A DNA stretch of 51,035 nucleotides, taken from contig NZFU01000034.1 of assembly GCA_002689345.1 (NCBI GenBank), positions 1 through 51,035 of the forward strand, given 5' to 3'. The stretch is from Methanobacteriota archaeon. GTDB lineage: Archaea; Thermoplasmatota; Poseidoniia; Poseidoniales; Poseidoniaceae. Position 1 is the stretch's first letter, and every line of letters begins with the position of its first letter. A program made the translations under genes and the position numbers. The notes below the pieces were generated by a model. It saw only the letters and a list, made by a program, of their open reading frames with translations. It did no database searches and was not told where the DNA came from. Below, piece after piece: positions 4,455-18,893 of the stretch.

Positions 4455-6092
4455 GTGGAGTACTTGGAAGCATGGGACATCATCGTAATCGGAGACGGAC
4501 CTGCAGCATTACGAGCATCAGCGAACGCCGCTAAGGCCGGAGCAAAAGTTCTAATGATGTCATCAGATAGTTTGGGCGCGGGCAATACCGCAGCAATTGA
4601 TGGTATAGCAGCGCCACTGAAAGAAAGTACAACCAAATCTCATCGCGACGATACGATTAGAGCAGGAGGGTTCCTTTGCGACCAAGACATCGTATCACAA
4701 CGAGTTGCTGAAGCCTCCAGACAAGTCGATCTTCTAGAGCGCTGGGGAGTAATATTTCGCCGCGACCAAGATGGTATTCCACTCGTTCGTCGAGCAGCAG
4801 GACACACACTTCCACGCTTAGCAGGAGCAGGGGATGCTTTGATTCGCGAAACGCAACAGGTTCTCGAAGAACAATGTATGAAAAACGGAGTTGTCCGCAG
4901 AGGCGACCAAGTTCCACTTCAATTAGTCCACACCGATGAACAGGTGCATGGTCTGATTTCCTTAGATATGTCTACCGGGGCTGTGAACGCATTACAAGCA
5001 AAGTGTGTGATTATCGCAGATGGCGGCTATGAAGGAGCTTGGACTGGTGTCTCTATTGGATTAGGTGCCGATTTAGCAATGAGAACAGGCCTTGCATTAA
5101 GGGACCTTGAATTTACATCATGGACTCCTTTGGCAGTTTCTGGAACCAATGTAGTATTGCCAATTGGGATGCTTTCCGATGGAGCTACACTTCACCACTC
5201 TAATGGAAATCCAATAGATGTGGAAGATTTTGCAGACACTACTACTCTAGCCAATGCCACCACTTCACAGGGCGTTGTTTTAGATGCCCGGAACATGGGA
5301 GAGTCAGAGGCTTGGTGGGACCAAACATCTGAAATTTTGACGACACGCCTTGGAATTAACATGGCGCGCCAAACAATTCCAGTTAGTGCACAAGTTTCCT
5401 CCACACTGGGTGGAATTGCAACCGATGAATTTGGTAGAGCAATTTCAGGCAAATGGTCTAGATGGTTTACCGGGCTATACGCTGCAGGAGACTCCGCTTG
5501 TTCAGGACTTCATGGCGCAGGAATGGTTGCTGGAAACAGGCTATTAGACGCTTTAGCAGGCGGAGCTGCCGCTGGAGAGCACGCTGCAAATTATGCAGCT
5601 AAAGTGGAATTTAGTGGCCGTGCAGCCTTAGAAACACACCTCGGAGTTGCAGAAGCCGACCTTGATTTCGATATGGCGGGTGCGGAAGAAGGACCGGTCC
5701 AAAGAGCGGGCCCACTATTCGCTAAATTATCTGAAATCATGAATTCCCAAGTAGGAATTTCTAGAGACGAATCAGGGCTTCAAACAGCATTGGAAGAACT
5801 CAACAAGTTAGCAAAATCCGCTGACAAAATGCATCTTGACGATAACACTAGATTATTCAATTCCAACTTACTAGAATCTCTGAGACTCAAGGCAGGAATC
5901 CGCTTGGCTAAGGCGACCGTGCAAAGCGCCCTCTCTAGAACAGAGAGCAGAGGAGCTCATCAAAGAGCAGATTTTGCCGAATTAGACTCAGAACAAATGC
6001 ATCACACATTAGTCGATATCGAGGGAGAGATCTCAACGCTTGCCATACGCAAGGGCGTCTCTGGAACCTGGGTACTTACTCCAGATGCTTAG
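4455..6092 (+). CDS. SdhA/FrdA/NadB-family flavoprotein with degenerate active site
   Basis: DIIVIGDGPAA FAD fold, DTIRAG..DQD, DLEF, GLYAAGDSACSGLHGA and RTESRGAHQRADF all align to succinate dehydrogenase flavoprotein; catalytic residues are replaced (see findings). Confidence 0.85.
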   Translation: MEYLEAWDIIVIGDGPAALRASANAAKAGAKVLMMSSDSLGAGNTAAIDGIAAPLKESTTKSHRDDTIRAGGFLCDQDIVSQRVAEASRQVDLLERWGVIFRRDQDGIPLVRRAAGHTLPRLAGAGDALIRETQQVLEEQCMKNGVVRRGDQVPLQLVHTDEQVHGLISLDMSTGAVNALQAKCVIIADGGYEGAWTGVSIGLGADLAMRTGLALRDLEFTSWTPLAVSGTNVVLPIGMLSDGATLHHSNGNPIDVEDFADTTTLANATTSQGVVLDARNMGESEAWWDQTSEILTTRLGINMARQTIPVSAQVSSTLGGIATDEFGRAISGKWSRWFTGLYAAGDSACSGLHGAGMVAGNRLLDALAGGAAAGEHAANYAAKVEFSGRAALETHLGVAEADLDFDMAGAEEGPVQRAGPLFAKLSEIMNSQVGISRDESGLQTALEELNKLAKSADKMHLDDNTRLFNSNLLESLRLKAGIRLAKATVQSALSRTESRGAHQRADFAELDSEQMHHTLVDIEGEISTLAIRKGVSGTWVLTPDA

Positions 6093-6139
6093 ACAAATCC
6101 ACCCTCTATATTTTGAGGGGAGTGTAATGTCGGAAGGAT

Positions 6140-6577
6140 ATGGCAGAGCCGACATTGTTTCAGAAAATACTCACTGGAGAGATTCCTGGAAACTTCGTGG
6201 GCAGGGGCGAAAATTGGGGCGCATTCCTAGACGTATTTCCTCGGGCCGAAGGGCACACCCTCGTGGTTCCACTCAATCCAGTACAGAGAATTTCCGATTT
6301 GTCTAAATCTGAATTAGCAGATTTATTCTCAGGAGTTAAGCAAGTCCAGAGCACACTATCATCATATTTTGATACAAAGGACTTCACCGTAATGGTCCAT
6401 GATGGGCCAATGGCTGGCCAAGAAATACCTCATGTCCACATTCATGTAATCCCTAGAACAGAAAACGATGGGGGCAGGGCATTACCAGCACTATTCCCCA
6501 GCGCAAACCCCTCAAACCCTCCGGATTTTACAGGCTTAAACGAACTCTGCAATCAGATTAAGGGGGCTTCACAATGA
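6140..6577 (+). CDS. HIT family nucleotide hydrolase
   Basis: TLFQKILTGEIP, FLDVFP..GHTLVVP and HVHIHVIPR histidine triad. Confidence 0.92.
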   Translation: MAEPTLFQKILTGEIPGNFVGRGENWGAFLDVFPRAEGHTLVVPLNPVQRISDLSKSELADLFSGVKQVQSTLSSYFDTKDFTVMVHDGPMAGQEIPHVHIHVIPRTENDGGRALPALFPSANPSNPPDFTGLNELCNQIKGASQ

Positions 6578-8124
6578 AAAAAGGATCAGACGGAGCAAGA
6601 GATCGTCATGGAGAATTATTACCTGAATTATCAACATCTGCTACCAAAATGAATTATGAAAAATTGGTAAATACCCCTCTTCCTAATTTCGGGAAGAAGT
6701 ACCCTGGGTCTCCGTTCTTCATGGAGCTGGGCTACTATTTACTCAGAAAAACATTCAATTCAATATTCAGAACACTAGAAGTCACCGGAAAAGAAAACAT
6801 CCCACTGGATCGTGGCAGTATGTGCTCAGCATGGCACACGAACGGTTTAGTCGATCCAATTTGTATATTTTTAACTCATCCAAAAATGTTCGTAGTAGGG
6901 GGGAGACACGACCTAGTAACTCGTCCAATACTTGGCTTCTGGGCGAGAAAATTTGCAGTGCAGCCCGTGGTGAGAAAAGCAGAATTATTACGCGGAGGAT
7001 GTTCAGAAGAAGAGGCAAATTATCTCAATGGCCGTTCGTTACTAAACTTGGCCACAGGAATTTCACACGGCTTTGGCTGTGCATTATTTCCCGAAGGAAC
7101 CAGCCATTCTGAAAGTCATTTAATTCGTGTAAAGACGGGACCGTTTCGAACAGTTTTGGCCGCAGCGGCGCATGCAAAAGGTACAGGCGGCAAACTGCCA
7201 GTAATCATCCCAATCGGATTACATTTCAGAACTAGGCATTTTTTCAGAACGGATTGCTGGGTAGAATACGGCGAGCCAATTGAAATGCCTCACGAGGGAT
7301 TGCCGGACGATTTAGTCCAAACGGTAAGCAATGGAGATTGGATGGAACCTCCTGCCGAAGTAGTGATCGATTTAAGAGATAAAGTCGAAGAAAAATTGGC
7401 TCCAATGACTCCTGATAGAGACACATACAGCGAAGTCCACAGAGATGGAATAATTGCACATGTTCAAAGAAGGATTGAGAATAAACCCGAATTGACGTGG
7501 AGAGAAGAAGTTCTTGAAGTTAGAAGACTGAAACACGAGCCTGCATCAAAGAACATCCAAGAGGTTGCAACAAAAATCGGCGACACTTTACATGAGGCGG
7601 TTTTAGACGGACGCGACATAAACTCTCAAGGAGACGGACTGAGGGGCTTTTCACCGTTAGGAGCCATCACCGATTTATTCAAACTAATTCCATTATTGTG
7701 TTTGCTTCCAACAATAATTATTGGGATGGGGCCACAAATAGCGGTTGGTAGGTTGTTAGGAGACCGTACAGATGAAGGGCTCGATGCTCGAAGCTCATAC
7801 CATTTCTTATTCGGAATGTTTGGGTCATTAGGCTGGTGGCCAATTATGGCGACATCAATCACAATATTATCAATCGTATTCAGCACCGAAATAAACACAG
7901 AATTAGGCATTGATTGGATTGGCCTGTTAGGTGGGGAGTTTTGGCAACAAGCATGCTCAGCACTACTTTTATGGATTTCAACGATCCTAATATTTTGGTT
8001 ATCGGGAATGTCTTTTGCAAATGGATGGGATACGATTTCAGACTTTGCAAAATGGCGACGACGTAGCAAAACAAATCAAAAAGTTCATGCAGATTTAGTT
8101 AAATTGCGCGAATTACTAAACTGA
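6574..8124 (+). CDS. PlsC-family (lysophospholipid/glycerolipid) acyltransferase with C-terminal TM helices
   Basis: Block I WHTNGLVDP (HX4D), block III LFPEGTSH, block IV PVIIPIGLHF; hydrophobic C-terminal region. Confidence 0.85.
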   Translation: MKKGSDGARDRHGELLPELSTSATKMNYEKLVNTPLPNFGKKYPGSPFFMELGYYLLRKTFNSIFRTLEVTGKENIPLDRGSMCSAWHTNGLVDPICIFLTHPKMFVVGGRHDLVTRPILGFWARKFAVQPVVRKAELLRGGCSEEEANYLNGRSLLNLATGISHGFGCALFPEGTSHSESHLIRVKTGPFRTVLAAAAHAKGTGGKLPVIIPIGLHFRTRHFFRTDCWVEYGEPIEMPHEGLPDDLVQTVSNGDWMEPPAEVVIDLRDKVEEKLAPMTPDRDTYSEVHRDGIIAHVQRRIENKPELTWREEVLEVRRLKHEPASKNIQEVATKIGDTLHEAVLDGRDINSQGDGLRGFSPLGAITDLFKLIPLLCLLPTIIIGMGPQIAVGRLLGDRTDEGLDARSSYHFLFGMFGSLGWWPIMATSITILSIVFSTEINTELGIDWIGLLGGEFWQQACSALLLWISTILIFWLSGMSFANGWDTISDFAKWRRRSKTNQKVHADLVKLRELLN

Positions 8125-8134
8125 ACGGTTCAAG

Positions 8135-8791
8135 TTGGTGGACTGTTTCGGAGGGGTTATGTCGCCCGAAGATGCAGAGATGCAAGTACGCTCCTGGCTC
8201 GCAAGTGAACGTATTGAAATTCGTGAACAAGAAGACCCACGCGCCCACTTACATTTACTCGTAAAATATCCACAAGGAAAGAATGGGCACATGTTTGCAG
8301 TAATCATACCTAAAGAGAGAGACCTTCTTGCAATATCATCGATGACAAGAGTCGACGAAGGACAACAGCAGTCGATGAAGAATATGATGAAAGACGATGA
8401 AGAAGAATGGAAGTCTTGGATGCACGAATGCAGGATGCAATTGATTTCTTCAGGCGTTGATTGGGGCATCCATTTGGGCCACTCGGGCAAAGAAAGAACC
8501 GGTCCATTACAGGCATTCAATGTTAGCGAACCAGTATGGTTTGATGGTTTAACAAAAAATGAAATGATGCAGAATTTACGCCGCCTTTGGCTAGCAAAGC
8601 TCGGCATTATCCACGAAATAAAATTCGCATTTGGCACAGGTACAGGGAAGCCCGGGCCTGTGGATGATTGGCAGAACCGAAAAGATTCAAAGCAAAGGGT
8701 TGGAAGGCCAGCAGCTTCCCAACCAAAAGAAATCCATACAGATGACTCGATGTCATTTGGTGAAGGATTTGACCCATCTGATTGGATTTGA
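8135..8791 (+). CDS. conserved archaeal protein, DUF2299-like
   Basis: 218-aa ORF (likely ATG 8159) co-oriented with the upstream genes; resemblance to DUF2299 is from recall only. Confidence 0.6.
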   Translation: MVDCFGGVMSPEDAEMQVRSWLASERIEIREQEDPRAHLHLLVKYPQGKNGHMFAVIIPKERDLLAISSMTRVDEGQQQSMKNMMKDDEEEWKSWMHECRMQLISSGVDWGIHLGHSGKERTGPLQAFNVSEPVWFDGLTKNEMMQNLRRLWLAKLGIIHEIKFAFGTGTGKPGPVDDWQNRKDSKQRVGRPAASQPKEIHTDDSMSFGEGFDPSDWI

Positions 8792-8876
8792 ACGCCTACT
8801 TCTCACAATGACCTGAGGGGCGCGCGGTTAAGTAGGAGTAATGTAGCGTTAGGCTTGTCGTTAGGAAGGTATTCGT

Positions 8877-11800
8877 ATGAGACAAAAAATGAAGTCAGTC
8901 AGTCTTGCAGCAATAATGGTGTTATCAACCCTATCAGCAATTTTAGTTGCAGCTCCAGCAGCAGCAACTCAAGTTGTTATTACAGAAGCAATCCAAGTCG
9001 TAGATGGCGGCAGTTCCTCTGACCGTATGTCTGCGGTTGGCTCGGACTCTCAAGGCAACGTTCACGTTGTTTGGAGCCGTTCAAACCAGCACCTGTATTA
9101 TTCGATGATATCACCACGCGGCGATACTCTAATCGATGCCACACAGGTAACTGGAGCCGGACTTCACAAAATATACCACCCAGATATGGTAATCGACGAA
9201 AACGACATCGTACACATTACTTGGGCAGATCATTCCGGCCAACACAAAATCATGTACACCGCTTTACATCCATTCAATACTGCGATGGACGGCTCTGTTT
9301 CTGACGACAGCAGCCTTACCGCAATTGATGATTTCATCGTAGCCCAACACATCAACAATCGTGATTGGCCTGCAATCGATGTAGATAGCCAAGGAAACAT
9401 CCATCTTGTCTGGCAAGACAATTACGATGAGTTGGACATGTTCTTCCAACAGCCTCAAATTTACTACAAAATGTTACAGCCAGACTATTCCGTTCAAAAT
9501 GCAATTGTACTATTTGACGACACCCTACTTACTCCAATCATTGGACACAAGGGGCACCCTGACATCGTAGTAGATGCTAATGATTACGTTCAGATTGCTT
9601 GGGACGATACCCGTGGAGGAAAGGTCGAGCTAGTATTCGTAGTCGATACGTCCGGTTCTATGTACTCTGAGTGGGCAGACGTTTGTACTGTAATTTATGG
9701 AGGAAACTTCGCATCCGGTGGTAATTTCAAAGGAATCAAACCAATGCTCGAAGAAGGAAACATGACTGTATATGAGACAATTTACGGTCTAGGTAACACC
9801 TTACCTGGTGCTGCAAGCCAAGGAAACTGCGCTCAGCACAATAAGAACTCAGGACCAAGAAACACACCACTTGGACTTGTTAACAACGACGATTCTGGTG
9901 GATTAAGGACACTTCCGGGAACCGTTTACAACGGCGCAACATACTCCGGATACTCTGGAGAAGACTGGGGACCAGGATCTAACTGGGCTTGCCTTTCATG
10001 GAAAGACACAGTAGGAAACGTACCTGGAAACCCACCAACCTCTTCCGATCACCGATGGAACCCTAATGCAACTAAGATTGTCTTACCGGTTTCCGATGAA
10101 GGACCAAAGGATGGAGACCCTTCCCAACAGGCGGATGATACCACTTCTATCAACGAAGCACATGACAACTGTCTGAACGCAGGAGTAGTACCTGTCGGAC
10201 TATATGGGCAATCATATGGTGGTGCAGGAAACATTGAATCACACATGCGCGACTTAGCACAGTGTCCTAACGGGGTAGTCTCGACAGCAACCAGAAATTG
10301 CCCAGGAACATCTGTTCGCTCGACCGATGCTGGTGGACAAGCATACGAGTTCCCTTCAGGAACCGGCGGTGCTAGCCAGATGCAACTTCTTGTAGAAGCA
10401 ATGGTTTACATTTCAACCAACAACTCTCGTGAAATTTTCATGACTGTGTTAGACCCATATGGTAAGATGAATAACGACCAATCTTGGGTTCCAGGAAACC
10501 CTGGCCACACCACCATGGGTAACGGATACGCAGAAGACGTAGGAAAGGGAAGTGAAGGACACTTAGTCGTAGTAAACGACACACGTGTAACTATTGACGA
10601 CGCTTTCTCATTCCACCCTTCAATCGGCGTTGACATGCAAGGAAATACACACATTGCATGGATGGATGGAAGAGATTACGGATTCGAAAAGAATGTACCA
10701 TATGAGGTGTATTACACCAAGTTGCGCCTACAAGGGGCAGGAGAATGGGATGGAGTGCCTAATGGATTATCCACATATGCAATCAAGAGAATCGAAGATA
10801 CACCGATCTCAGAGGTTGAAGGATGGCAACAAATGCCACAAGGTAGTAGCCAAAATTCCGCTTATCCGGCACTATTAACCGACCCACAAAACAACATTCA
10901 CATTGCATGGCTAGACTTTGGTAATGCAAGCTCGGGCGAAGAAATTCGCTATACTAGATTGAATGCAACGGATGAAACTGGCCCCGGAGAGACTGCTTTG
11001 GATGCTTGGAATTCAACAGAAGTAACTTCATGGTCATCATTCAAACTTGGACCCAATCAATTATCCAAACCAACACTTGGACAACCTCCAGCTTTCGCTA
11101 ATGATTTAGGAAGCGGAGCCCACATCGCTTGGTCTGACACAAACAAGTGTTCAGATGAGAGCAATGGTGGGCCTTGGACAATTTGTTATTCTCATGTTTT
11201 GACTGGACAGGTTGATGTCGAATTTGATGACGGCGAAACTTACTATCACGTAATTGAGCCTGGAGAGCAGACAATCTACAACTTGACAATCAACAATACT
11301 ACACCGGGACCTAAAGACTTGGTTGCAGACACTTACAATCTGAACCTATCTGGAATGCCAGAAAATTGGACTGCAAACCTATACTTTGCTAACAACCATA
11401 CTGCAATCTTCCCAGATACACCAATCTTCCTCGAAGGAGGAGAAATGGCGCGTATGTATCTTCGTGTAAGAGCACCATCTATCTATCAGGCTGCCGAAGA
11501 CCAAGTTGCTCAAATCATTGTAACTGCAATTTCATTGAAAGACCCAGCAATCCGGTCAGAAAGATTAACTCTAACTCTGATGGATGTGGTTCACGGTATT
11601 GACCTTGACACCAGCCACCGTATGGCAGATGTTGAACAGGGCCAAACAGCAATCTTTTCAATCACAATTACAAATACTGGTAACGTGCATGATTCATTCG
11701 CCTTCTATGACCCTAATACCCTTGAAGGGCAACAAGAATGGCTTCTACCGTTTGGATGGGGAGTAGCATTCCCAATGCAAGTTTCGCTTGACCCAGGACA

Positions 11801-13913
11801 GTCGGTAACAAAGAATCTAGAAATTTCTGTACCTACATCTCAAGACCCAGGTACGTTTGTTGTTTATGTCAAAGGTTGGTCTGAAGGCGAACCGATTAAG
11901 TCCATAGAAAAAGGAACATTCGATGTACTCGAATTGTGGATAAATGTATCAATACGTTCTATTGGAAACATTGTATTCGAAATCTATGATACTAGTGAAA
12001 TGATTCTTCCTTCACCAGGTTCCGGCACACCATCTTGTGCAAATTATGAACTCAACGTAATCAAGAATTACGAGCAAGGATTCCTTGTTTTCACCACACC
12101 AGGGGCTCCTGAAGTTCGACCAGAGGAAATCGACCCTGAAACCTGGAGACAAGATCATTGGACCGTAGAGTTGGATTTCTCCAACGCACCGGGTCCAAGA
12201 GACCCAGCAGACCCTCATAGCCCAAGATTATGGCCAGTGGAAACCACTTACACCGTAGGAATTTCAGTGTGTGCGCCAGTTAATGCGAATGCTGGACTGG
12301 GCCCTGCAGTTACTGTAAAAGCTCACTTGGAAGGATATCCTCGTGTGGCAGACTCAGTGATTCTATCTACTAATGTAATACACGTCTTTGACCTTGTAGC
12401 CGAGGCAGATACCGGTTCTGAAAATAATGCAATATCAGCTAACCCAGGAGATACCTGGATTATTCCAGCTACAGTATCCAATACTGGTAACGGGCCAGAT
12501 AGATACGACCTACGTCTAGGGCGCGTCTATGAAACATCAACGGGAATCGATGTCTTATGGGACATTGAGGTACCTCGATCAATACTAATTGAACTAACAC
12601 GCGATACGTCTCAGACAGTCGATTTGACAATCAATGTACCAACTCAGGTTCCTGCTGGAGATTATACAGTTGTAATCCAAGCATTCAGCGAAGAGGATTA
12701 CCCTGATGATTCAGGACACAGAACAAGACTACGTGATGAAATAAATCTACAAATTACTGTTAATGAATTCTATGATATGCAAATTAGTATGGATTCAAGC
12801 GTAGATAATGCGGTTAAGACCAGTGCACCAGGAAGGATAGTTGAATTCGTTGTGAACATCACCAACGCAGGTAACGTTCCAGACACACCATCCTTACACA
12901 ACCACTCTACACAGAGAGACATTACTAGCGGCAATGATATCATGAATACTTTGCCTGGAATGGGAACCCTTTCTGGATGGAGTGTTGATTGGAAGATGGT
13001 AAATTATGTTGGAAGCGATTTAATTGTCGAGACCGATTGTATTACTACAACATCAGACGCTGAAGTCTTCCCGGACGATGTCTGTGTCTTCCTAAGCGAT
13101 GTTGGAGCCGATGGTGAGTGGAGATTACCTGAGATGGACCCTTATACCACCTACACAATGATTGCAACAGTTCACATTTCAACTGGTGCGAAACTCGATA
13201 CACGCTACATTGGCCTGAAAGTAACCAGCATGGCTGGCGACATGGACAATGATGGAGATCATGACGACAGCCCTGATTGGACTAGCGATTCTCTAGATAC
13301 AAACGAGTTCATAGTAACTCTAAGGCTACGTGCTCCAAACTTGGTAATTTCAGAAGTTTCAGTTTCAGAAACTAGCAACGAAGTCGACAAGACAATTCCT
13401 GTGCGTGTAATTTTACAAAACACAGGAAATGTTCATGCAACCAATATCGAAGTAGTTCTTTGCGAATTCAGTGATGCGGATGATGAGGTTCTCAAAGACA
13501 TTCGTTTGAACGGATGTCCTGAGGATTCAGTAGTCATGCGCCAAACCGTTGGCGCACTACTTGCACCTGATGCTAGCGAAGATGCTCAAGAAATCGAATT
13601 GTATCTTCTGTACCCTGTTTCTGCAGGATCTCACGATGTCGTGGTAGTGGTTGACCCTACAAACAGCATTGTAGAAGTAAGCGAAGCTGATAACATCAGA
13701 GTTGTAGGCGACGAACTAACAAGCGACTCACCATTTATGGACGTAGCTGGCGAAATCGTTAGTGATTGGGCACTACCATTTGGTGTTCTAATCCTAACCT
13801 TCTCACTGTTCGGAGTTCTCTACCTTGTAGGAAAGGGACGCCGTGCTGATGTAAAGAACCGCTTAGCAGAACAGAGCAGTTTGATTTCAGTTCTTCAAGA
13901 AGACGAAGCATGA
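8877..13913 (+). CDS. giant cell-surface protein: signal peptide, 7-blade beta-propeller with inserted vWA domain, about 6 Ig-like (NEW3/CARDB) domains, C-terminal TM anchor
   Basis: Signal peptide MRQKMKSVSLAAIMVLSTLSAILVAAPAAA; seven PxIxxDxxGNxHxxWxD repeats; MIDAS DTSGS; repeated TNTGN..D Ig motifs; TM WALPFGVLILTFSLFGVLYLVG. Confidence 0.85.
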   Translation: MRQKMKSVSLAAIMVLSTLSAILVAAPAAATQVVITEAIQVVDGGSSSDRMSAVGSDSQGNVHVVWSRSNQHLYYSMISPRGDTLIDATQVTGAGLHKIYHPDMVIDENDIVHITWADHSGQHKIMYTALHPFNTAMDGSVSDDSSLTAIDDFIVAQHINNRDWPAIDVDSQGNIHLVWQDNYDELDMFFQQPQIYYKMLQPDYSVQNAIVLFDDTLLTPIIGHKGHPDIVVDANDYVQIAWDDTRGGKVELVFVVDTSGSMYSEWADVCTVIYGGNFASGGNFKGIKPMLEEGNMTVYETIYGLGNTLPGAASQGNCAQHNKNSGPRNTPLGLVNNDDSGGLRTLPGTVYNGATYSGYSGEDWGPGSNWACLSWKDTVGNVPGNPPTSSDHRWNPNATKIVLPVSDEGPKDGDPSQQADDTTSINEAHDNCLNAGVVPVGLYGQSYGGAGNIESHMRDLAQCPNGVVSTATRNCPGTSVRSTDAGGQAYEFPSGTGGASQMQLLVEAMVYISTNNSREIFMTVLDPYGKMNNDQSWVPGNPGHTTMGNGYAEDVGKGSEGHLVVVNDTRVTIDDAFSFHPSIGVDMQGNTHIAWMDGRDYGFEKNVPYEVYYTKLRLQGAGEWDGVPNGLSTYAIKRIEDTPISEVEGWQQMPQGSSQNSAYPALLTDPQNNIHIAWLDFGNASSGEEIRYTRLNATDETGPGETALDAWNSTEVTSWSSFKLGPNQLSKPTLGQPPAFANDLGSGAHIAWSDTNKCSDESNGGPWTICYSHVLTGQVDVEFDDGETYYHVIEPGEQTIYNLTINNTTPGPKDLVADTYNLNLSGMPENWTANLYFANNHTAIFPDTPIFLEGGEMARMYLRVRAPSIYQAAEDQVAQIIVTAISLKDPAIRSERLTLTLMDVVHGIDLDTSHRMADVEQGQTAIFSITITNTGNVHDSFAFYDPNTLEGQQEWLLPFGWGVAFPMQVSLDPGQSVTKNLEISVPTSQDPGTFVVYVKGWSEGEPIKSIEKGTFDVLELWINVSIRSIGNIVFEIYDTSEMILPSPGSGTPSCANYELNVIKNYEQGFLVFTTPGAPEVRPEEIDPETWRQDHWTVELDFSNAPGPRDPADPHSPRLWPVETTYTVGISVCAPVNANAGLGPAVTVKAHLEGYPRVADSVILSTNVIHVFDLVAEADTGSENNAISANPGDTWIIPATVSNTGNGPDRYDLRLGRVYETSTGIDVLWDIEVPRSILIELTRDTSQTVDLTINVPTQVPAGDYTVVIQAFSEEDYPDDSGHRTRLRDEINLQITVNEFYDMQISMDSSVDNAVKTSAPGRIVEFVVNITNAGNVPDTPSLHNHSTQRDITSGNDIMNTLPGMGTLSGWSVDWKMVNYVGSDLIVETDCITTTSDAEVFPDDVCVFLSDVGADGEWRLPEMDPYTTYTMIATVHISTGAKLDTRYIGLKVTSMAGDMDNDGDHDDSPDWTSDSLDTNEFIVTLRLRAPNLVISEVSVSETSNEVDKTIPVRVILQNTGNVHATNIEVVLCEFSDADDEVLKDIRLNGCPEDSVVMRQTVGALLAPDASEDAQEIELYLLYPVSAGSHDVVVVVDPTNSIVEVSEADNIRVVGDELTSDSPFMDVAGEIVSDWALPFGVLILTFSLFGVLYLVGKGRRADVKNRLAEQSSLISVLQEDEA

Positions 13914-13951
13914 GCCTAGAAGGCAAAACATGGCATCGCCCTTCCTGATAT

Positions 13952-14704
13952 TCAGGAAGGGTCGATGCCTAATGCTGCCCACCAAGGTAATTCGATTGTT
14001 TGTGGCGCAGCAATAAATTGACCTGAGCGTTCTGCCATTTGGCGAACTACTCTAGTTCTAACTTCGTCTATTAATCGCTCACTAGCCTCTGCACCAAGCT
14101 GTAATTCTCGTGCGAATTCTTTGAAGTTGAAATTAGATCGCGGGGATTCCAAAATATTGTGGACCATCAAGCGTTGCTCATAAGACTCAAAGTCGGAATC
14201 AACGGTTGATGACACTCGCTGTTTGATTTGTTGGTGTAATGCAATCAACGCATCGCGCTCATTATCGAGTTTTTCAATAGCCTCAGAAATTGCAGAAAGG
14301 TGATGCGCACCTTCACCAACACCAATCTTCTTTCTCCCACTAACAATTTCTGCAACCTTGACAACATTTCCATTCAATTTGTTAGAGAGTTTCAGCGGAC
14401 CCCCTGCGGGCAGAATTCGTTGACTACATTGAAATAGATCTGGACCCAAATCAATACGGATAGAAATCGCTTGTTGGACAGAGTAGATATTCTTAGGAGG
14501 ACCTCCTTTATTGCTCGCAGCCTTCATTTTGACAACGAAGCCAACACCTTCGAGTAATTTCAGATGTTTCATGACAGCTTGTTGCGATATACCGATTTGC
14601 TCGGCTAATTGTAGAGGATAGTGGGGCTCTCGAACCAACCGCTCAAGAATAGCTCTACGAGCCTTATTTTGTAGAATAGCGAGCGCCTCATCAAGCCCAG
14701 CCAC
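13952..14704 (-). CDS. ArsR-like winged-helix transcriptional regulator with C-terminal coiled coil
   Basis: LQNKARRAILERL..PHYPLQLAEQIGISQQAVMKHLKLLE..GFV..GGPPKNIYS archaeal ArsR/HTH signature. Confidence 0.85.
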   Translation of the reverse strand: MAGLDEALAILQNKARRAILERLVREPHYPLQLAEQIGISQQAVMKHLKLLEGVGFVVKMKAASNKGGPPKNIYSVQQAISIRIDLGPDLFQCSQRILPAGGPLKLSNKLNGNVVKVAEIVSGRKKIGVGEGAHHLSAISEAIEKLDNERDALIALHQQIKQRVSSTVDSDFESYEQRLMVHNILESPRSNFNFKEFARELQLGAEASERLIDEVRTRVVRQMAERSGQFIAAPQTIELPWWAALGIDPS

Positions 14705-14761
14705 GACTTCACAACCATTGGTTACCTACTATCGGTTACCTATGAACCCGTCGCATCAGCG

Positions 14762-15640
14762 CTATGACTCATCCCAATTCTTCCACGAATCATCACTCGG
14801 GGGGTTTTCAGGTGTGAATGTGCTTGCTCTGTTAATCGAGCCACCTACCTTTGCAGGAGCAGATTTTGTTACTCGAGTATCTACATTAGCAAATGGACTT
14901 GGTACATTATTGGAATCTTCTTCGAAGTCAGGAACTTCGCCTCTGACCAATTTGTATAATTGGTCGGTAGTGAGCATTTCTTGATTTGGTTTCATCTCTT
15001 GTTCCAATGGGTCGGTGGAAATAATATTCTGGTCCTGAGTGAGGTAAACTTTACCGCCTCTGCCTTTGTTAATTGCAACCAATAACCATCCCAGTGGGAA
15101 TAATACTGCACCCATACAACAAGCACCCATGGTTGCTAAAAAGCCACCATCAGAAGCAATCTCTAGAAGCCAACTATCTCCATTTGTAAAGAGGAGGGGA
15201 TTGTTACATCCATCATCGGACTTACATTCAATTTCAACCAAGACCTCAGAACTATCTTTGATATCTAAAGTAGTCAATTTCGAAAAATCAACATCTGGGT
15301 GTTCTGCCGAAAAATCAGTTCTACAATCGTCAGAGACCTTAGCACCAACTTCGCCATCCTCGATGTACTTGTAAGTGACAATATAGTCGCTATCATCGCC
15401 TTCAACGTGTACAACCCAGCACCCAGAACCAAGAGTTAATGTGTTGACTTCACCTAATTCAGCAGATTGCTCTGAAGTTTCTCGCGGATCATAGTATTCT
15501 CCGAAATCATCCATCATCAACGAGAAGGTTGCAACTCCAACAAATATCAATACTAATCCAGCAATCATCAGCCGCTTGGGCCAAGGAGAAGGCTCTGGTG
15601 CTGGTTGCATGGTTACACCGAAATGGCTACACAACTTCAA
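14762..15640 (-). CDS. hypothetical membrane protein (two TM segments flanking an acidic extracellular domain)
   Basis: 292-aa ORF, likely ATG at 15610; TM LMIAGLVLIFVGVATFSLM and GAVLFPLGWLLVAI. Confidence 0.65.
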   Translation of the reverse strand: MKLCSHFGVTMQPAPEPSPWPKRLMIAGLVLIFVGVATFSLMMDDFGEYYDPRETSEQSAELGEVNTLTLGSGCWVVHVEGDDSDYIVTYKYIEDGEVGAKVSDDCRTDFSAEHPDVDFSKLTTLDIKDSSEVLVEIECKSDDGCNNPLLFTNGDSWLLEIASDGGFLATMGACCMGAVLFPLGWLLVAINKGRGGKVYLTQDQNIISTDPLEQEMKPNQEMLTTDQLYKLVRGEVPDFEEDSNNVPSPFANVDTRVTKSAPAKVGGSINRASTFTPENPPSDDSWKNWDES

Positions 15641-15650
15641 CCAAGCGGCT

Positions 15651-16748
15651 TCAAGATAATCCCATCTCGCCTAATTTTTCAGGCAGATAGGTATCGGTAA
15701 CGAAATCTAATCCATATTTTGCTAAGGACTGTTGCTCAGCTTTCTGATTAACTTCCAACATCATGTTGATCTGGTCTTGCCACCATCCATCAGCAAACCT
15801 AGGGTCTGACAATTCAGCGTTTAGGGCTTCTATGTCTTTCTTTGACAAATCATCAGAAGGCAAGTCATACGCTAGGATATCATCCGCAGTGATTCCGAGG
15901 TATGTTGCCGAAGGCGTTGCTAAATATTCTGAAATGTGAGCGGTTTTAATCGCACCATAAGCAATAGATGCAAAGATTCTGAATGACCACGGGTCACCGT
16001 CCAGGAATACTACAACAGGAATATCCCATTCTTCATTCATCCTCTTGATTATCCTTCGAGTTGAACGGGCAGGCTGCCCTTTCAAGTGTATTAATCCACA
16101 ATTGTATTCTTCATCAAATCCATTTTCAATCAATCTGTCAAACATACCCCCGGTCTCAATAGCCATTAGGAACTTAACATCATGCTCGATTAATCGAATC
16201 TTTTCAGATTCGACATTGTATGGAACCCCGTAACCCGAATCACCAACATCGTCACGTGCATTAATTCTCATCCATTGTCCGCGCCTGTTAAGCTCATCGA
16301 CCGTTATATCACCAATCATTCTCGCACCATCTTCTTCTGGTCGTAATTTGAAATCCTCTCTCAAACAAGAGGTTACAACTTCAAGGTCTTCTGCTAAGTT
16401 GTTGGATTCATTTTGACTTCCAAATTTACCTAGGCCCCATCCTTCAGAAATATAGTACATTTCTCTTAGAGTCGATGATTTTCCAGCCTCAATCATTTCT
16501 TCAATAAATTCGACAACGTGCAGTGCTCGAAGTAAATTCTTAGCCGAGCCCAAACTTGTTGCATCTCGAGTTGAACGTTTTTTACCGTACTTGTATACAC
16601 CCAATTTCGAATCAAAACCAATATTGTTCTTGGTACGAACTGGCAAAGTCATTGTAGGCGGCTCGCCCTTTACAATTCTGTCATACATCTCTTCAACAAC
16701 TAGGTGTAGTCTAGCCTTTGTTAATTCAGGATCATTTACTCGTGCCAT
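15651..16748 (-). CDS. top6A: DNA topoisomerase VI subunit A
   Basis: STLREMYY (catalytic Tyr), [18 protein letters not shown] and DGDPW Toprim motifs; ATG overlaps the top6B stop (TGATG). Confidence 0.97.
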
Positions 16749-18799
16749 CAATTTTCACCTCCGAAAAGTGTAGTTTGGCCAGAATCGCCATCTACCACAC
16801 CCGGCTCAAAACCTTCTTGAAATTCTTCATCAGAGGCCACATTTTCTGCTTGATTGAGAATATCTTCTTGCTTTCTGATATCTTCAAGCATTTTCTCATC
16901 CAACTTTGTTGCTCCAATCACATCTTGACTTCCTCTAAAGAAAACCTCAGTTTCAGTCCAATCTCCTTTTTCGAGATTGGATAGCGAATATTCCAGTACC
17001 GCATTTTGACCAGGTTCAAGAGTTTCAATTTTCCAGCCCCATATTCCCATGGCCTCCTTTCTTCCTCCGCGTTCATTACCAACCATTTCTCCGCCAGATT
17101 TTTCTGGCCAATTTACCAACAAAGAGTAACTTCTTGCACGGGCGGTATAATTGAAGAGAGTAATCGAAACATCGGTTTGTTTTGTTTCCTTATTCCAGGT
17201 TGTAGTTTCATTACAAATAACCGCACTCATGATTCTTGTAATCGAGCCAGCTAAATCGGGCACAGGGCGTTCGAGAATCGATGCAGACTTTTCAGCAATA
17301 GCCGGAAGGATGTCATTGATCAACTCAAACTTCTCTCTTGTTTTTGCCATCTTTTTCTTCTTTTCAAGATGCTTTCTCAAACCTCTCCCCATCTCTAGCA
17401 TTGCTTTACGTGTTTCTTCAAACACGAAACCATTGTCCGACAATGCTTCTTTTGCTTCGGATGTGAATTGAACATTCGTGCTTGCTAAGTGCACCAATAT
17501 TGCCGCTGGACCCTTAGGAACACCCTTTCCTCCAGCCTGCTCAAGACCATACTGTCTCCAGTCCACACTTTCGATAGCCTTTGTCAATAAACAACCACCC
17601 TGTTGGTACATTAGGGGTACACGATTTGCAAAGCGTAAGACTTCAACATGTTTGTCAGCAGCCATACCTTCTCCAAAAATTAGGCCAACTTCAACTTGGA
17701 ATGGATTCCCATGGCTGACTGTAGGCGCTCTTGTCATAGTTGCAATAAATTTAGAATCGATGGTTTTGGATAATCCCTTTTTGATTAACATCTCTTCAAT
17801 AGGGGAGAGACAATTAGTTGGAGGACTTAGTAATTTAATCGCCTTTCCATTTACAACGCGTTCTCCTTGAAATGCTTCTAGAAGAGCGCGAACATCGTCA
17901 GGCTTCATCGATTTTGGCTTTGTTCCAACACCCAATTCAGCAGCCTCGCACAATTCTTTTGCAGCACGCATAGATACTCCAGAGAAATTCTGCCTTAGGA
18001 AAACAGTTAGCCTAGAATCCTTTGATTCTCTACACATTCTTTGTAATTGACCTAATTCAATACCGTGAGGATGAGGCTTAATCGCATCGACTTTACTAGG
18101 TAGCCTTTCAGTTACTCTTGGCCAATGGTATTTTTCGCCATCAGGGTCGATGAATGTGATTTCAGCATGAGGATTAACAATACTTGTCATCCTAAGATAT
18201 TGGAATACAGATTGGCGGCCTCGTTGGTATTTAGCCTTCATTTTGGTAGTAACCCTTAGGCCATGTTCTTTGAGAGTAAGGTCGTCATTTTCCCAAATGA
18301 TACGAGTCTGTTCACTTTTTACAGCCTTATTTTTTCTAGTATCTAATCCGATGTTGACACTTACAGCGGTTGGCTCTCCCGAGATTTTCGATAATACGTG
18401 AGTGGGTTTACCAGTTGTTAATTGGGAATACATCACAACTCCAGTAATTCCAATACCTTGCTGACCACGACTTTGTCTGATGGCATGAAATCTCGAACCG
18501 AACAGTAGTTGCCCGAACACTTTCTCGATACTTTTCTGAGGAATGCCGGGGCCATTATCTTCAGAAACCAATTCCAAAATATCCTTTTTTGTATCGAGTT
18601 TTGAAATTTTAATTACAATGTCTGGAAGAATTCTAGCCTCTTCACATGCATCTAATGAATTGTCTACGGCTTCTTTGACCGCCGTAATGATTGAACGAGG
18701 TAGAGAATCAAAACCGAGGAAATGTTTGTTTTTCTCAAAAAACTCAGAAATTGCAATTTGTTTTTGATTGCTAGCCATCTTGTTTGCAATGCCTGACAT
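16748..18799 (-). CDS. top6B: DNA topoisomerase VI subunit B with C-terminal Ig-like extension
   Basis: KEAVDNSLDACE, EDNGPGI, SRGQQGIGIT GHKL motifs; H2TH domain; RFANRVPL transducer. Confidence 0.97.
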   Translation of the reverse strand: MSGIANKMASNQKQIAISEFFEKNKHFLGFDSLPRSIITAVKEAVDNSLDACEEARILPDIVIKISKLDTKKDILELVSEDNGPGIPQKSIEKVFGQLLFGSRFHAIRQSRGQQGIGITGVVMYSQLTTGKPTHVLSKISGEPTAVSVNIGLDTRKNKAVKSEQTRIIWENDDLTLKEHGLRVTTKMKAKYQRGRQSVFQYLRMTSIVNPHAEITFIDPDGEKYHWPRVTERLPSKVDAIKPHPHGIELGQLQRMCRESKDSRLTVFLRQNFSGVSMRAAKELCEAAELGVGTKPKSMKPDDVRALLEAFQGERVVNGKAIKLLSPPTNCLSPIEEMLIKKGLSKTIDSKFIATMTRAPTVSHGNPFQVEVGLIFGEGMAADKHVEVLRFANRVPLMYQQGGCLLTKAIESVDWRQYGLEQAGGKGVPKGPAAILVHLASTNVQFTSEAKEALSDNGFVFEETRKAMLEMGRGLRKHLEKKKKMAKTREKFELINDILPAIAEKSASILERPVPDLAGSITRIMSAVICNETTTWNKETKQTDVSITLFNYTARARSYSLLVNWPEKSGGEMVGNERGGRKEAMGIWGWKIETLEPGQNAVLEYSLSNLEKGDWTETEVFFRGSQDVIGATKLDEKMLEDIRKQEDILNQAENVASDEEFQEGFEPGVVDGDSGQTTLFGGEN

Positions 18800-18893
18800 A
18801 TGTATCACTCAACCCAAAGGTCCTCCTCCGTCCTAATGACGTTGGGCCTTGAGCGACCTAAGCCGAACGCCCAAGGTTCTTGAATGATAGCGT

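Follow-up and report, generated by a model that had tools for sequence, protein, structure and literature searches.

Integrin-α-like architecture, apparently convergent, predicted for a conserved cell-surface protein of Poseidoniales

The window analysed here comprises 51,035 nucleotides (nt) of contig NZFU01000034.1, from a Marine Group II (MGII) archaeon of the family Poseidoniaceae, order Poseidoniales. One of its open reading frames (ORFs), at 8877..13913 on the forward strand (1,678 codons for 1,678 amino acids, aa), encodes what is, judged from the sequence, a type I membrane-anchored cell-surface protein, hereafter the surface protein. Its head is predicted to be a seven-bladed β-propeller from which a von Willebrand factor A (vWA) domain is looped out, and to stand on immunoglobulin (Ig)-like legs. 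The other known case of this layout is that of the chordate integrins, and the likeness represents structural convergence, the archaeal version apparently having been put together from a propeller of sialidase type and a vWA domain of Thermoplasmatota. We see an even chance that the protein works as a cation-dependent surface receptor or adhesin through its nested vWA domain, in the manner of an integrin α head but without shared descent.

MGII archaea, which are uncultured, rank with the most abundant archaea of the plankton. On how they contact particles, algae or viruses, the published genome surveys of MGII mention nothing beyond adhesion domains, flagella, thrombospondin and flotillin, and we found no published description of the surface protein in the literature searched. 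It is an order-wide, strongly conserved candidate for the principal MGII surface receptor or envelope component.

Structure of the propeller head

The head (aa 30-903) was modelled with AlphaFold2 from a 35-row alignment that contained orthologues down to 28% identity, with most rows at least 60% identical. The model had a mean predicted local distance difference test (pLDDT) score of 83.5 and a predicted TM-score (pTM) of 0.79, and pLDDT fell below 50 at aa 464-484 and 652-658. A comparison of such a model with integrins had been proposed in an earlier reading made from the sequence alone (the sequence-only reading). In a Foldseek search of the Protein Data Bank (PDB), the best three matches of the head were indeed I-domain integrin α chains (E 4.7e-13 to 3.9e-11), namely, 7p2d_A (αM, E=4.7e-13), followed by 9p97_A (αE) and 3k6s_A (αX). 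The layout of the integrin α head, i.e., a propeller, a nested vWA domain and an Ig-like domain, is shared by the model. Further down the ranking, after six-bladed sialidases, came integrin α heads lacking the I domain and seven-bladed propellers. As far as the model goes, the integrin match of the head reflects domain order and local similarity, with no rigid overlay. In sequence searches of the PDB, the head matched no entry, whether the query was the single sequence or the 35-sequence profile; the lone match of the profile, a weak one to AbpX, fell on stalk domain 1.

The insert divides the propeller into two halves, which were delimited by blade motifs, DSSP secondary structure and, for the second half, Foldseek alignments across both halves. 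The N-terminal half (aa 32-246; 8970..9614 (+)) contains blades 1-3 and strands 1 and 2 of blade 4, and the C-terminal half (aa 570-774; 10584..11198 (+)) contains the rest of blade 4 and blades 5-7, with a cysteine pair (C758/C770). The blade motifs of the N-terminal half start at aa 51, 101, 164 and 227 (nt 9027-9074, 9177-9224, 9366-9413 and 9555-9602 (+)), and those of the C-terminal half at aa 580, 663 and 737 (nt 10614-10661, 10863-10910 and 11085-11132 (+)). A regular expression for the 16-residue motif had 8 overlapping matches at 7 distinct sites, as opposed to 0.12 on average and at most 4 in 2000 shuffles of the protein. The seven repeat strings quoted by the sequence-only reading, split 4+3, were all located in the protein. 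DSSP of the head model showed regular four-strand units in blades 1-3 and 5-7, and pLDDT in the N-terminal half was 85-96. In blade 4, the insert comes right after the first two strands (aa 225-232 and 238-244), and the chain returns through a strand at aa 564-570 just before blade 5.

The best rigid overlay of the propeller was obtained with the GH145 enzyme BACCELL_00856 (5mvh), with a target TM-score (TMt) of 0.64 over 768 columns. The PL25 ulvan lyase 5uam gave a TMt of 0.54, and PHL/PLL lectins gave TMt values of 0.43 to 0.54. These targets are seven-bladed propellers with SxDxGxTW repeats (PMC8377490). These alignments, 768 to 786 columns long for GH145 and PL25, cover both propeller halves and bypass the insert, which is what would be expected of one closed seven-bladed ring around the insertion. 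Closure of the repeats into one propeller, on which the sequence-only reading depended, was therefore borne out by the overlays on seven-bladed GH145 and PL25 structures (TMt 0.54-0.64).

Family assignments were sought by scanning Pfam and NCBIfam, with matches listed down to E<=10 and the curated cut-offs taken as a pass. In the whole protein, a curated threshold was passed by the last stalk domain alone (CARDB and DUF7507). BNR_4 matched the N-terminal propeller half at 19 bits (E=0.001), below its cut-off of 27.3 bits. Blade relatives that lack the insert pass Pfam BNR_4 (31-84 bits), and several of them also pass SBBP; their fusion partners are Laminin_G_3, GH43-like or S8 protease domains. 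By prediction, the propeller is thus seven-bladed and of the BNR_4/SBBP (sialidase-like) kind.

The nested vWA domain and its candidate metal site

The insert, an expanded and cysteine-rich vWA domain looped out of blade 4, occupies aa 247-569 (9615..10583 (+)) as delimited by DSSP, Foldseek, BLASTP and invariant cysteines. It begins with VELVFVVDTSGS, is entered after the second strand of blade 4 and is ~320 aa long. The sequence-only reading had given its length as ~270 aa; this holds for the vWA core from β1 to β6 (~277 aa by DSSP), but not for the whole segment between motifs 4 and 5 (~320 aa). An insert-only AlphaFold2 model (aa 246-570) had a pLDDT of 77 and a pTM of 0.77, and it showed the same alternating strands and helices as the head model.

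In Foldseek, the insert-only model matched vWA folds almost exclusively, with E values of 6e-6 to 1e-1, as the vWA assignment made from the sequence had presupposed. The matches included the β-I domains of integrins β8 and β3 (E 6e-6 to 1e-3), the 180-200-aa vWA domains of BatB (TMt 0.47) and CMG2/ANTXR (TMt 0.52-0.56), and TRAP, vWF A1, Rpn10, RGLG and the Sec23/24 trunk. The query TM-score (TMq) was only ~0.35, since the insert exceeds a canonical vWA domain by ~130 aa.

A link to the vWA family by sequence came from two surface proteins of another Thermoplasmatota family, L091 (21-2300 (+)) and L092 (21-5918 (+)), in which a compact vWA domain lies between Big_7, PKD and Y_Y_Y-type domains. 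Scanned alone, this compact outgroup domain passed Pfam VWA (28.9 bits as opposed to a cut-off of 23.8), and it matched the insert in BLASTP with E=2e-18. The motifs VDTSGSMYxEWxDxC, TIYGLG, ESWG and KIxIPxSDExP are common to both and specific to this family. The gaps in the alignment mark two long loops added in the insert. With 175-200 aa, the compact domain lacks these loops and the C-terminal extension of the insert and is not nested in a propeller. The insert may derive from a compact Thermoplasmatota vWA domain like that of L091 and L092.

Six cysteines of the insert (270, 318, 372, 432, 463 and 475) are invariant in all homologues and probably form three disulfides. In the paralogues P0131 and P0277, the vWA insert itself houses a further nested domain of ~290 aa, so that the propeller contains a domain that in turn contains another.

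The insert carries two elements of a candidate MIDAS, an adhesion site that depends on a metal ion. The DxSxS motif, D257-T-S259-G-S261 (9645..9659 (+)), lies in the β1-α1 loop between a strand at aa 249-256 and a helix at aa 260-274 in both models. The candidate second MIDAS aspartate, in S406-D407-E-G (10092..10103 (+)), lies at the C-terminal end of β4, after a strand at aa 399-406. The MIDAS residues of α-I domains likewise sit in the β1-α1 loop and after β4 (PMC4237329). The DxSxS motif and the string VLPVSDEG, both named in the sequence-only reading, were located, the first at 9645-9659 as that reading had it and the second, which holds the aspartate, at aa 402-409.

In the homologue alignment, the DxSxS motif and the β4 aspartate are each at least 90% conserved. 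The aspartate is lost in six of the seven homologues without DxSxS (P0130, P0136, P0137, P0139, P0272 and P0140) and in none of the ~40 that keep it. Such joint loss is as expected if both elements form one site, and the six cases probably go back to some three lineages and not to six separate events. The degenerate forms are taken to be paralogues, because P0137 occurs beside an orthologue-type copy in the same genome. These MIDAS-degenerate paralogues, which belong to MGIIb, keep the six cysteines and the motifs EDWGPG, DHRWN and EAHDxC.

Comparison with integrins and other known systems

The surface protein shares with the I-domain integrin α chains (αM, αX, αE, αL, α1 and α2) a seven-bladed propeller, a looped-out vWA domain with a DxSxS-type motif, Ig-like legs, one transmembrane helix and a short tail. 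However, the parts differ in kind. The blades are of BNR_4/SBBP type in the surface protein and of FG-GAP/Cage type in integrin α chains; FG-GAP (PF01839) had no match at E<=10 in the whole protein or in either propeller half, and within aa 32-774 the string FG occurs once and GAP not at all. No DxDxDG-type Ca2+ hairpin, which integrin α chains have in blades 4/5-7, was found in the propeller, and the only match to D.[DN].[DN]G lies in the stalk, at aa 1455. The vWA domain is inserted after strand 2 of blade 4, as opposed to the integrin α-I domain, which is inserted between blades 2 and 3 (PMC3192720). It is also larger, with ~320 aa and six cysteines compared to ~190 aa in the α-I domain. 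The stalk is CARDB/DUF11-like, whereas integrin α chains have thigh and calf domains; the scans of the stalk gave CARDB, DUF7507 and NPCBM_assoc and no Pfam match to the thigh/calf family Integrin_alpha2 at E<=10. Furthermore, an integrin α chain is an obligate heterodimer with a β subunit, whereas no β subunit is known for the archaeal protein, and the conserved neighbours (the DUF2299 protein, the ArsR-type regulator and the membrane protein) included no candidate for a β-subunit-like partner.

Common descent with integrin α chains was rejected on the lack of FG-GAP/Cage blades, of Ca2+ hairpins and of thigh/calf legs and on the insertion in blade 4. Since these four integrin features failed, α-I domains are confined to chordates (PMC4237329) and the surface protein was found only in Poseidoniales, the resemblance is best explained by convergence. 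The sequence-only reading had called it probably convergent, and the BNR_4/SBBP blades, the absence of FG-GAP, the different insertion point and the absence of integrin leg families support that view.

Among other known systems, the GH145/PL42 enzymes, the PL24/PL25 ulvan lyases, the PHL/PLL lectins and the BNR_4/SBBP proteins are the most similar in the propeller, where they gave the best rigid overlays (TMt 0.43-0.64). However, none of these propellers has a nested vWA domain, and their identity to the surface protein is 7-10%. PilY1/PilC, the type IV pilus tip adhesins of bacteria, combine a MIDAS-bearing, cysteine-rich vWA domain with a β-propeller (PMC11331964). In PilY1, the vWA domain is N-terminal and the propeller C-terminal, in tandem, and the protein sits on a pilus, whereas the surface protein has its vWA domain nested in the propeller and its own membrane anchor. 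By analogy, PilY1 would be the closest prokaryotic counterpart in function.

Distribution, synteny and conservation

Hundreds of close relatives were found, all from Poseidoniales where the source organism is named, and they carry database names such as "hypothetical protein", "uncharacterized membrane protein" and "CARDB domain-containing protein". A relative is present in 232 species-representative genomes. Whole-genome searches with the insert alone as the query amounted to the survey of MGII that the sequence-only reading had suggested. They recovered the insert in 138 of the 141 genomes of the window's family, in 110 of the 113 of the second family of the order and in the single genome of the third (1/1), so that it is present nearly throughout the two main families. 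In the class's remaining two families (f4 and f5), it was recovered from none of the 45 genomes searched, and a phylum-wide Thermoplasmatota sample gave weak partial matches to the insert in 4 genomes only. A search of the sister family f4 with the C-terminal propeller half and the first two Ig-like domains (Ig1-2), meant to recover an orthologue lacking the insert, returned only generic Ig-like matches.

The gene is nearly always present as one copy in the window's family and often as 2-4 copies in the second family. Genomes of the Thalassarchaeaceae type have 2-4 paralogues with a propeller and nested vWA head, e.g., L087 (G024:C10) and L089 (G066:C1).

The gene order is the same in both families (window positions 4455-18808): a flavin adenine dinucleotide (FAD) protein, an acyltransferase, a DUF2299 protein, the surface protein, an ArsR-type helix-turn-helix (HTH) protein, a membrane protein, Top6A and Top6B. 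This conserved order identifies the surface-protein genes of the two families as positional orthologues. The nature of the neighbours (acyltransferase, DUF2299, ArsR-type HTH, Top6A/B) suggests deep synteny and not a functional operon. Between the two families, identity is 56-62% in the head, 64-82% in Ig1-2 and 35-50% in the membrane-proximal domains; in the same comparison, Top6B shows 62-63% and the adjoining enzymes 34-41%. The identity of the head is close to that of Top6B, indicating strong purifying selection on the surface protein. In Poseidoniales, the gene belongs to the core, being nearly universal and kept in synteny.

Proposed function and alternatives

The propeller head with its nested vWA domain keeps the DxSxS motif and the β4 aspartate, both placed as in a MIDAS metal site. 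If the protein is a cation-dependent receptor or adhesin, the vWA domain would hold a divalent cation, and through this cation it would bind a conserved ligand or partner at an acidic group. The propeller would provide a platform and perhaps a second binding face, and the stalk would hold the head away from the membrane.

Several observations weigh against this proposal. Two of the three MIDAS elements were placed (DxSxS and the aspartate), and the threonine was not assigned from the DSSP strings. Pfam VWA (PF00092) reached 13.7 bits on the insert (E=0.075), below its cut-off of 23.8, and covered only β1 and the DxSxS motif. The TM-scores of the head to integrins were low (0.16-0.24), with a root mean square deviation above 20 Å, and six-bladed sialidases matched almost as well (E ~1e-10), ranking right after the top three integrins. 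Whether the ring closes, to which sheets the strands next to the insert belong and how the MIDAS is arranged were read solely from DSSP strings and Foldseek scores. Finally, adhesins are not typically conserved very strongly or encoded by single-copy core genes, and these traits suit a structural role as well. The sequence-only reading had favoured attachment to particles or cells, for which the intact, conserved MIDAS-type motif is the one specific support; the link to particle attachment is open to doubt, since a near-universal, strongly conserved and syntenic core gene of the whole order encodes the protein. This core-gene status would fit a structural role in the envelope and a role with a conserved partner equally well.

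The surface protein could accordingly be a structural component of the envelope, either surface-layer (S-layer)-like or a surface spacer or scaffold, in which the head would make lattice or partner contacts and would not bind an external ligand. The gene is mostly single-copy in Poseidoniaceae, near-universal and a positional orthologue in both families, and the head and upper stalk are conserved like the housekeeping neighbours. Archaeal surface-layer glycoproteins have a similar layout of signal peptide, Ig-like array, C-terminal membrane anchor and N-x-S/T sequons, and the surface protein, with 15 such sequons, resembles them in all these respects. However, no S-layer family and no PGF-CTERM/archaeosortase signal appeared in the NCBIfam and Pfam scans at E<=10, in which the nearest match was a halo_sig_pep match of just 7.4 bits. 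In addition, the retained MIDAS-type site points to a specific cation-mediated contact, though possibly one within a lattice. We consider an envelope role unlikely on balance, but it deserves to be taken seriously.

It is a good deal less probable that the surface protein is a membrane-anchored carbohydrate-active enzyme, with a sialidase-, GH145/PL42- or PL25-like propeller acting on acidic algal glycans and the vWA domain serving as an accessory binding module. The best rigid overlays were indeed with enzymes (5mvh and 5uam), the sialidases followed closely on the integrins in the Foldseek ranking, and the blade relatives without the insert are BNR_4 members joined to Laminin_G_3, GH43-like or S8 protease domains. 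However, the identity to the matched enzymes is 7-10%, and their catalytic residues were not mapped onto the propeller. Non-catalytic seven-bladed lectins match similarly (TMt 0.43-0.54), and the Pfam and NCBIfam scans gave no match to a CAZy-type family at threshold. Furthermore, the most conserved part of the protein is the vWA insert together with Ig1-2, not the propeller specifically.

Returning to the receptor proposal, we strongly doubt that the protein is an independently evolved integrin-type machine in function too, in which a ligand bound at the MIDAS would act, by way of the propeller and stalk, on the conserved AEQSSL tail. If such coupling were true, the surface protein would be a conformationally regulated outside-in/inside-out receptor in an uncultured archaeal group, and MGII cells would mainly rely on it to recognise particles, phytoplankton or one another.

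A prediction artefact, in which the repeats would not form one propeller or the insert would not have a vWA fold, is very improbable. The alignment was shallow (35 sequences, most at least 60% identical), the TM-scores of the insert to vWA domains were moderate, and pLDDT was below 50 in the two short segments at aa 464-484 and 652-658. However, two independent models with pTM values of 0.79 and 0.77 agree in secondary structure, seven regular four-strand units were seen by DSSP, and the compact outgroup domain connects the insert to Pfam VWA by an independent sequence route. True homology with integrin α chains by descent can practically be dismissed: the top Foldseek matches are I-domain α chains and the order of propeller, nested vWA domain, Ig-like legs, one transmembrane helix and short tail is the same, but the BNR_4/SBBP blades, the lack of FG-GAP and Integrin_alpha2 matches and of a DxDxDG motif in the propeller, the blade-4 insertion and the non-overlapping distributions (α-I domains only in chordates, PMC4237329; the surface protein only in Poseidoniales) all speak against it.

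Membrane anchor, stalk and neighbouring membrane protein

The ORF at 8877-13913, with a signal peptide, one transmembrane helix and a short tail, had been described from the sequence in the same terms, and the ORF call and the hydropathy profile match that description exactly. The signal peptide (aa 1-31; 8877..8969 (+)) shows hydropathy windows above 1.8 at aa 6-31, ends in AAPAAAT and is kept in orthologues. The single transmembrane helix, assigned by hydropathy (aa 1631-1653; 13767..13835 (+)), is followed by the basic stretch GKGRR. The cytoplasmic tail is basic and 25 aa long (aa 1654-1678; 13836..13910 (+)), and its motif AEQSSL(I/V)SVL is kept in the positional orthologues of both families. 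This conservation suggests a cytoplasmic partner or a sorting signal. In the MIDAS-less paralogues, the tail ends in IGDL(I/L)DDLL instead.

The stalk (11199..13712 (+)) probably consists of about six β-sandwich domains, at aa 775-902, 903-1022, 1023-1172, 1173-1296, 1297-1484 and 1485-1612. The sequence-only reading had counted about six Ig-like domains, a plausible count that was borne out in part. Domain 1 is all-β in the AlphaFold2 head model, which ends at aa 903. Domain 6 (aa 1487-1607) passes CARDB (PF07705) with 27.3 bits as opposed to a cut-off of 22.7 and matches DUF7507 with 29.6 bits. An NxGN/NxTP strand-loop motif occurs in domains 1, 2, 4, 5 and 6, and domains 2 and 4 are related to each other (hhalign probability 92.7%). 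To domain 3, no family was assigned. Matches below threshold, in the stalk or elsewhere in the protein, were to NPCBM_assoc, Ig_VWA7, the NCBIfam choice-of-anchor T domain (choice_anch_T) and a PDIAV lipoprotein family.

Stalk domain 5 contains an invariant acidic loop, DMDNDGDHDDSPDW (aa 1455-1468; nt 13239-13280), which is of DxDxDG type and has the look of a Ca2+ site. In the paralogues P0123-P0127, the lower stalk is replaced by arrays of thrombospondin-type-3-like DSDGDGxGDN repeats.

Two genes downstream of the surface protein, the window encodes a 292-aa membrane protein (14762-15640 (-)) that matches no Pfam family. It ends in W(K/R)xWDE(G/S), and its orthologues in both families end likewise.

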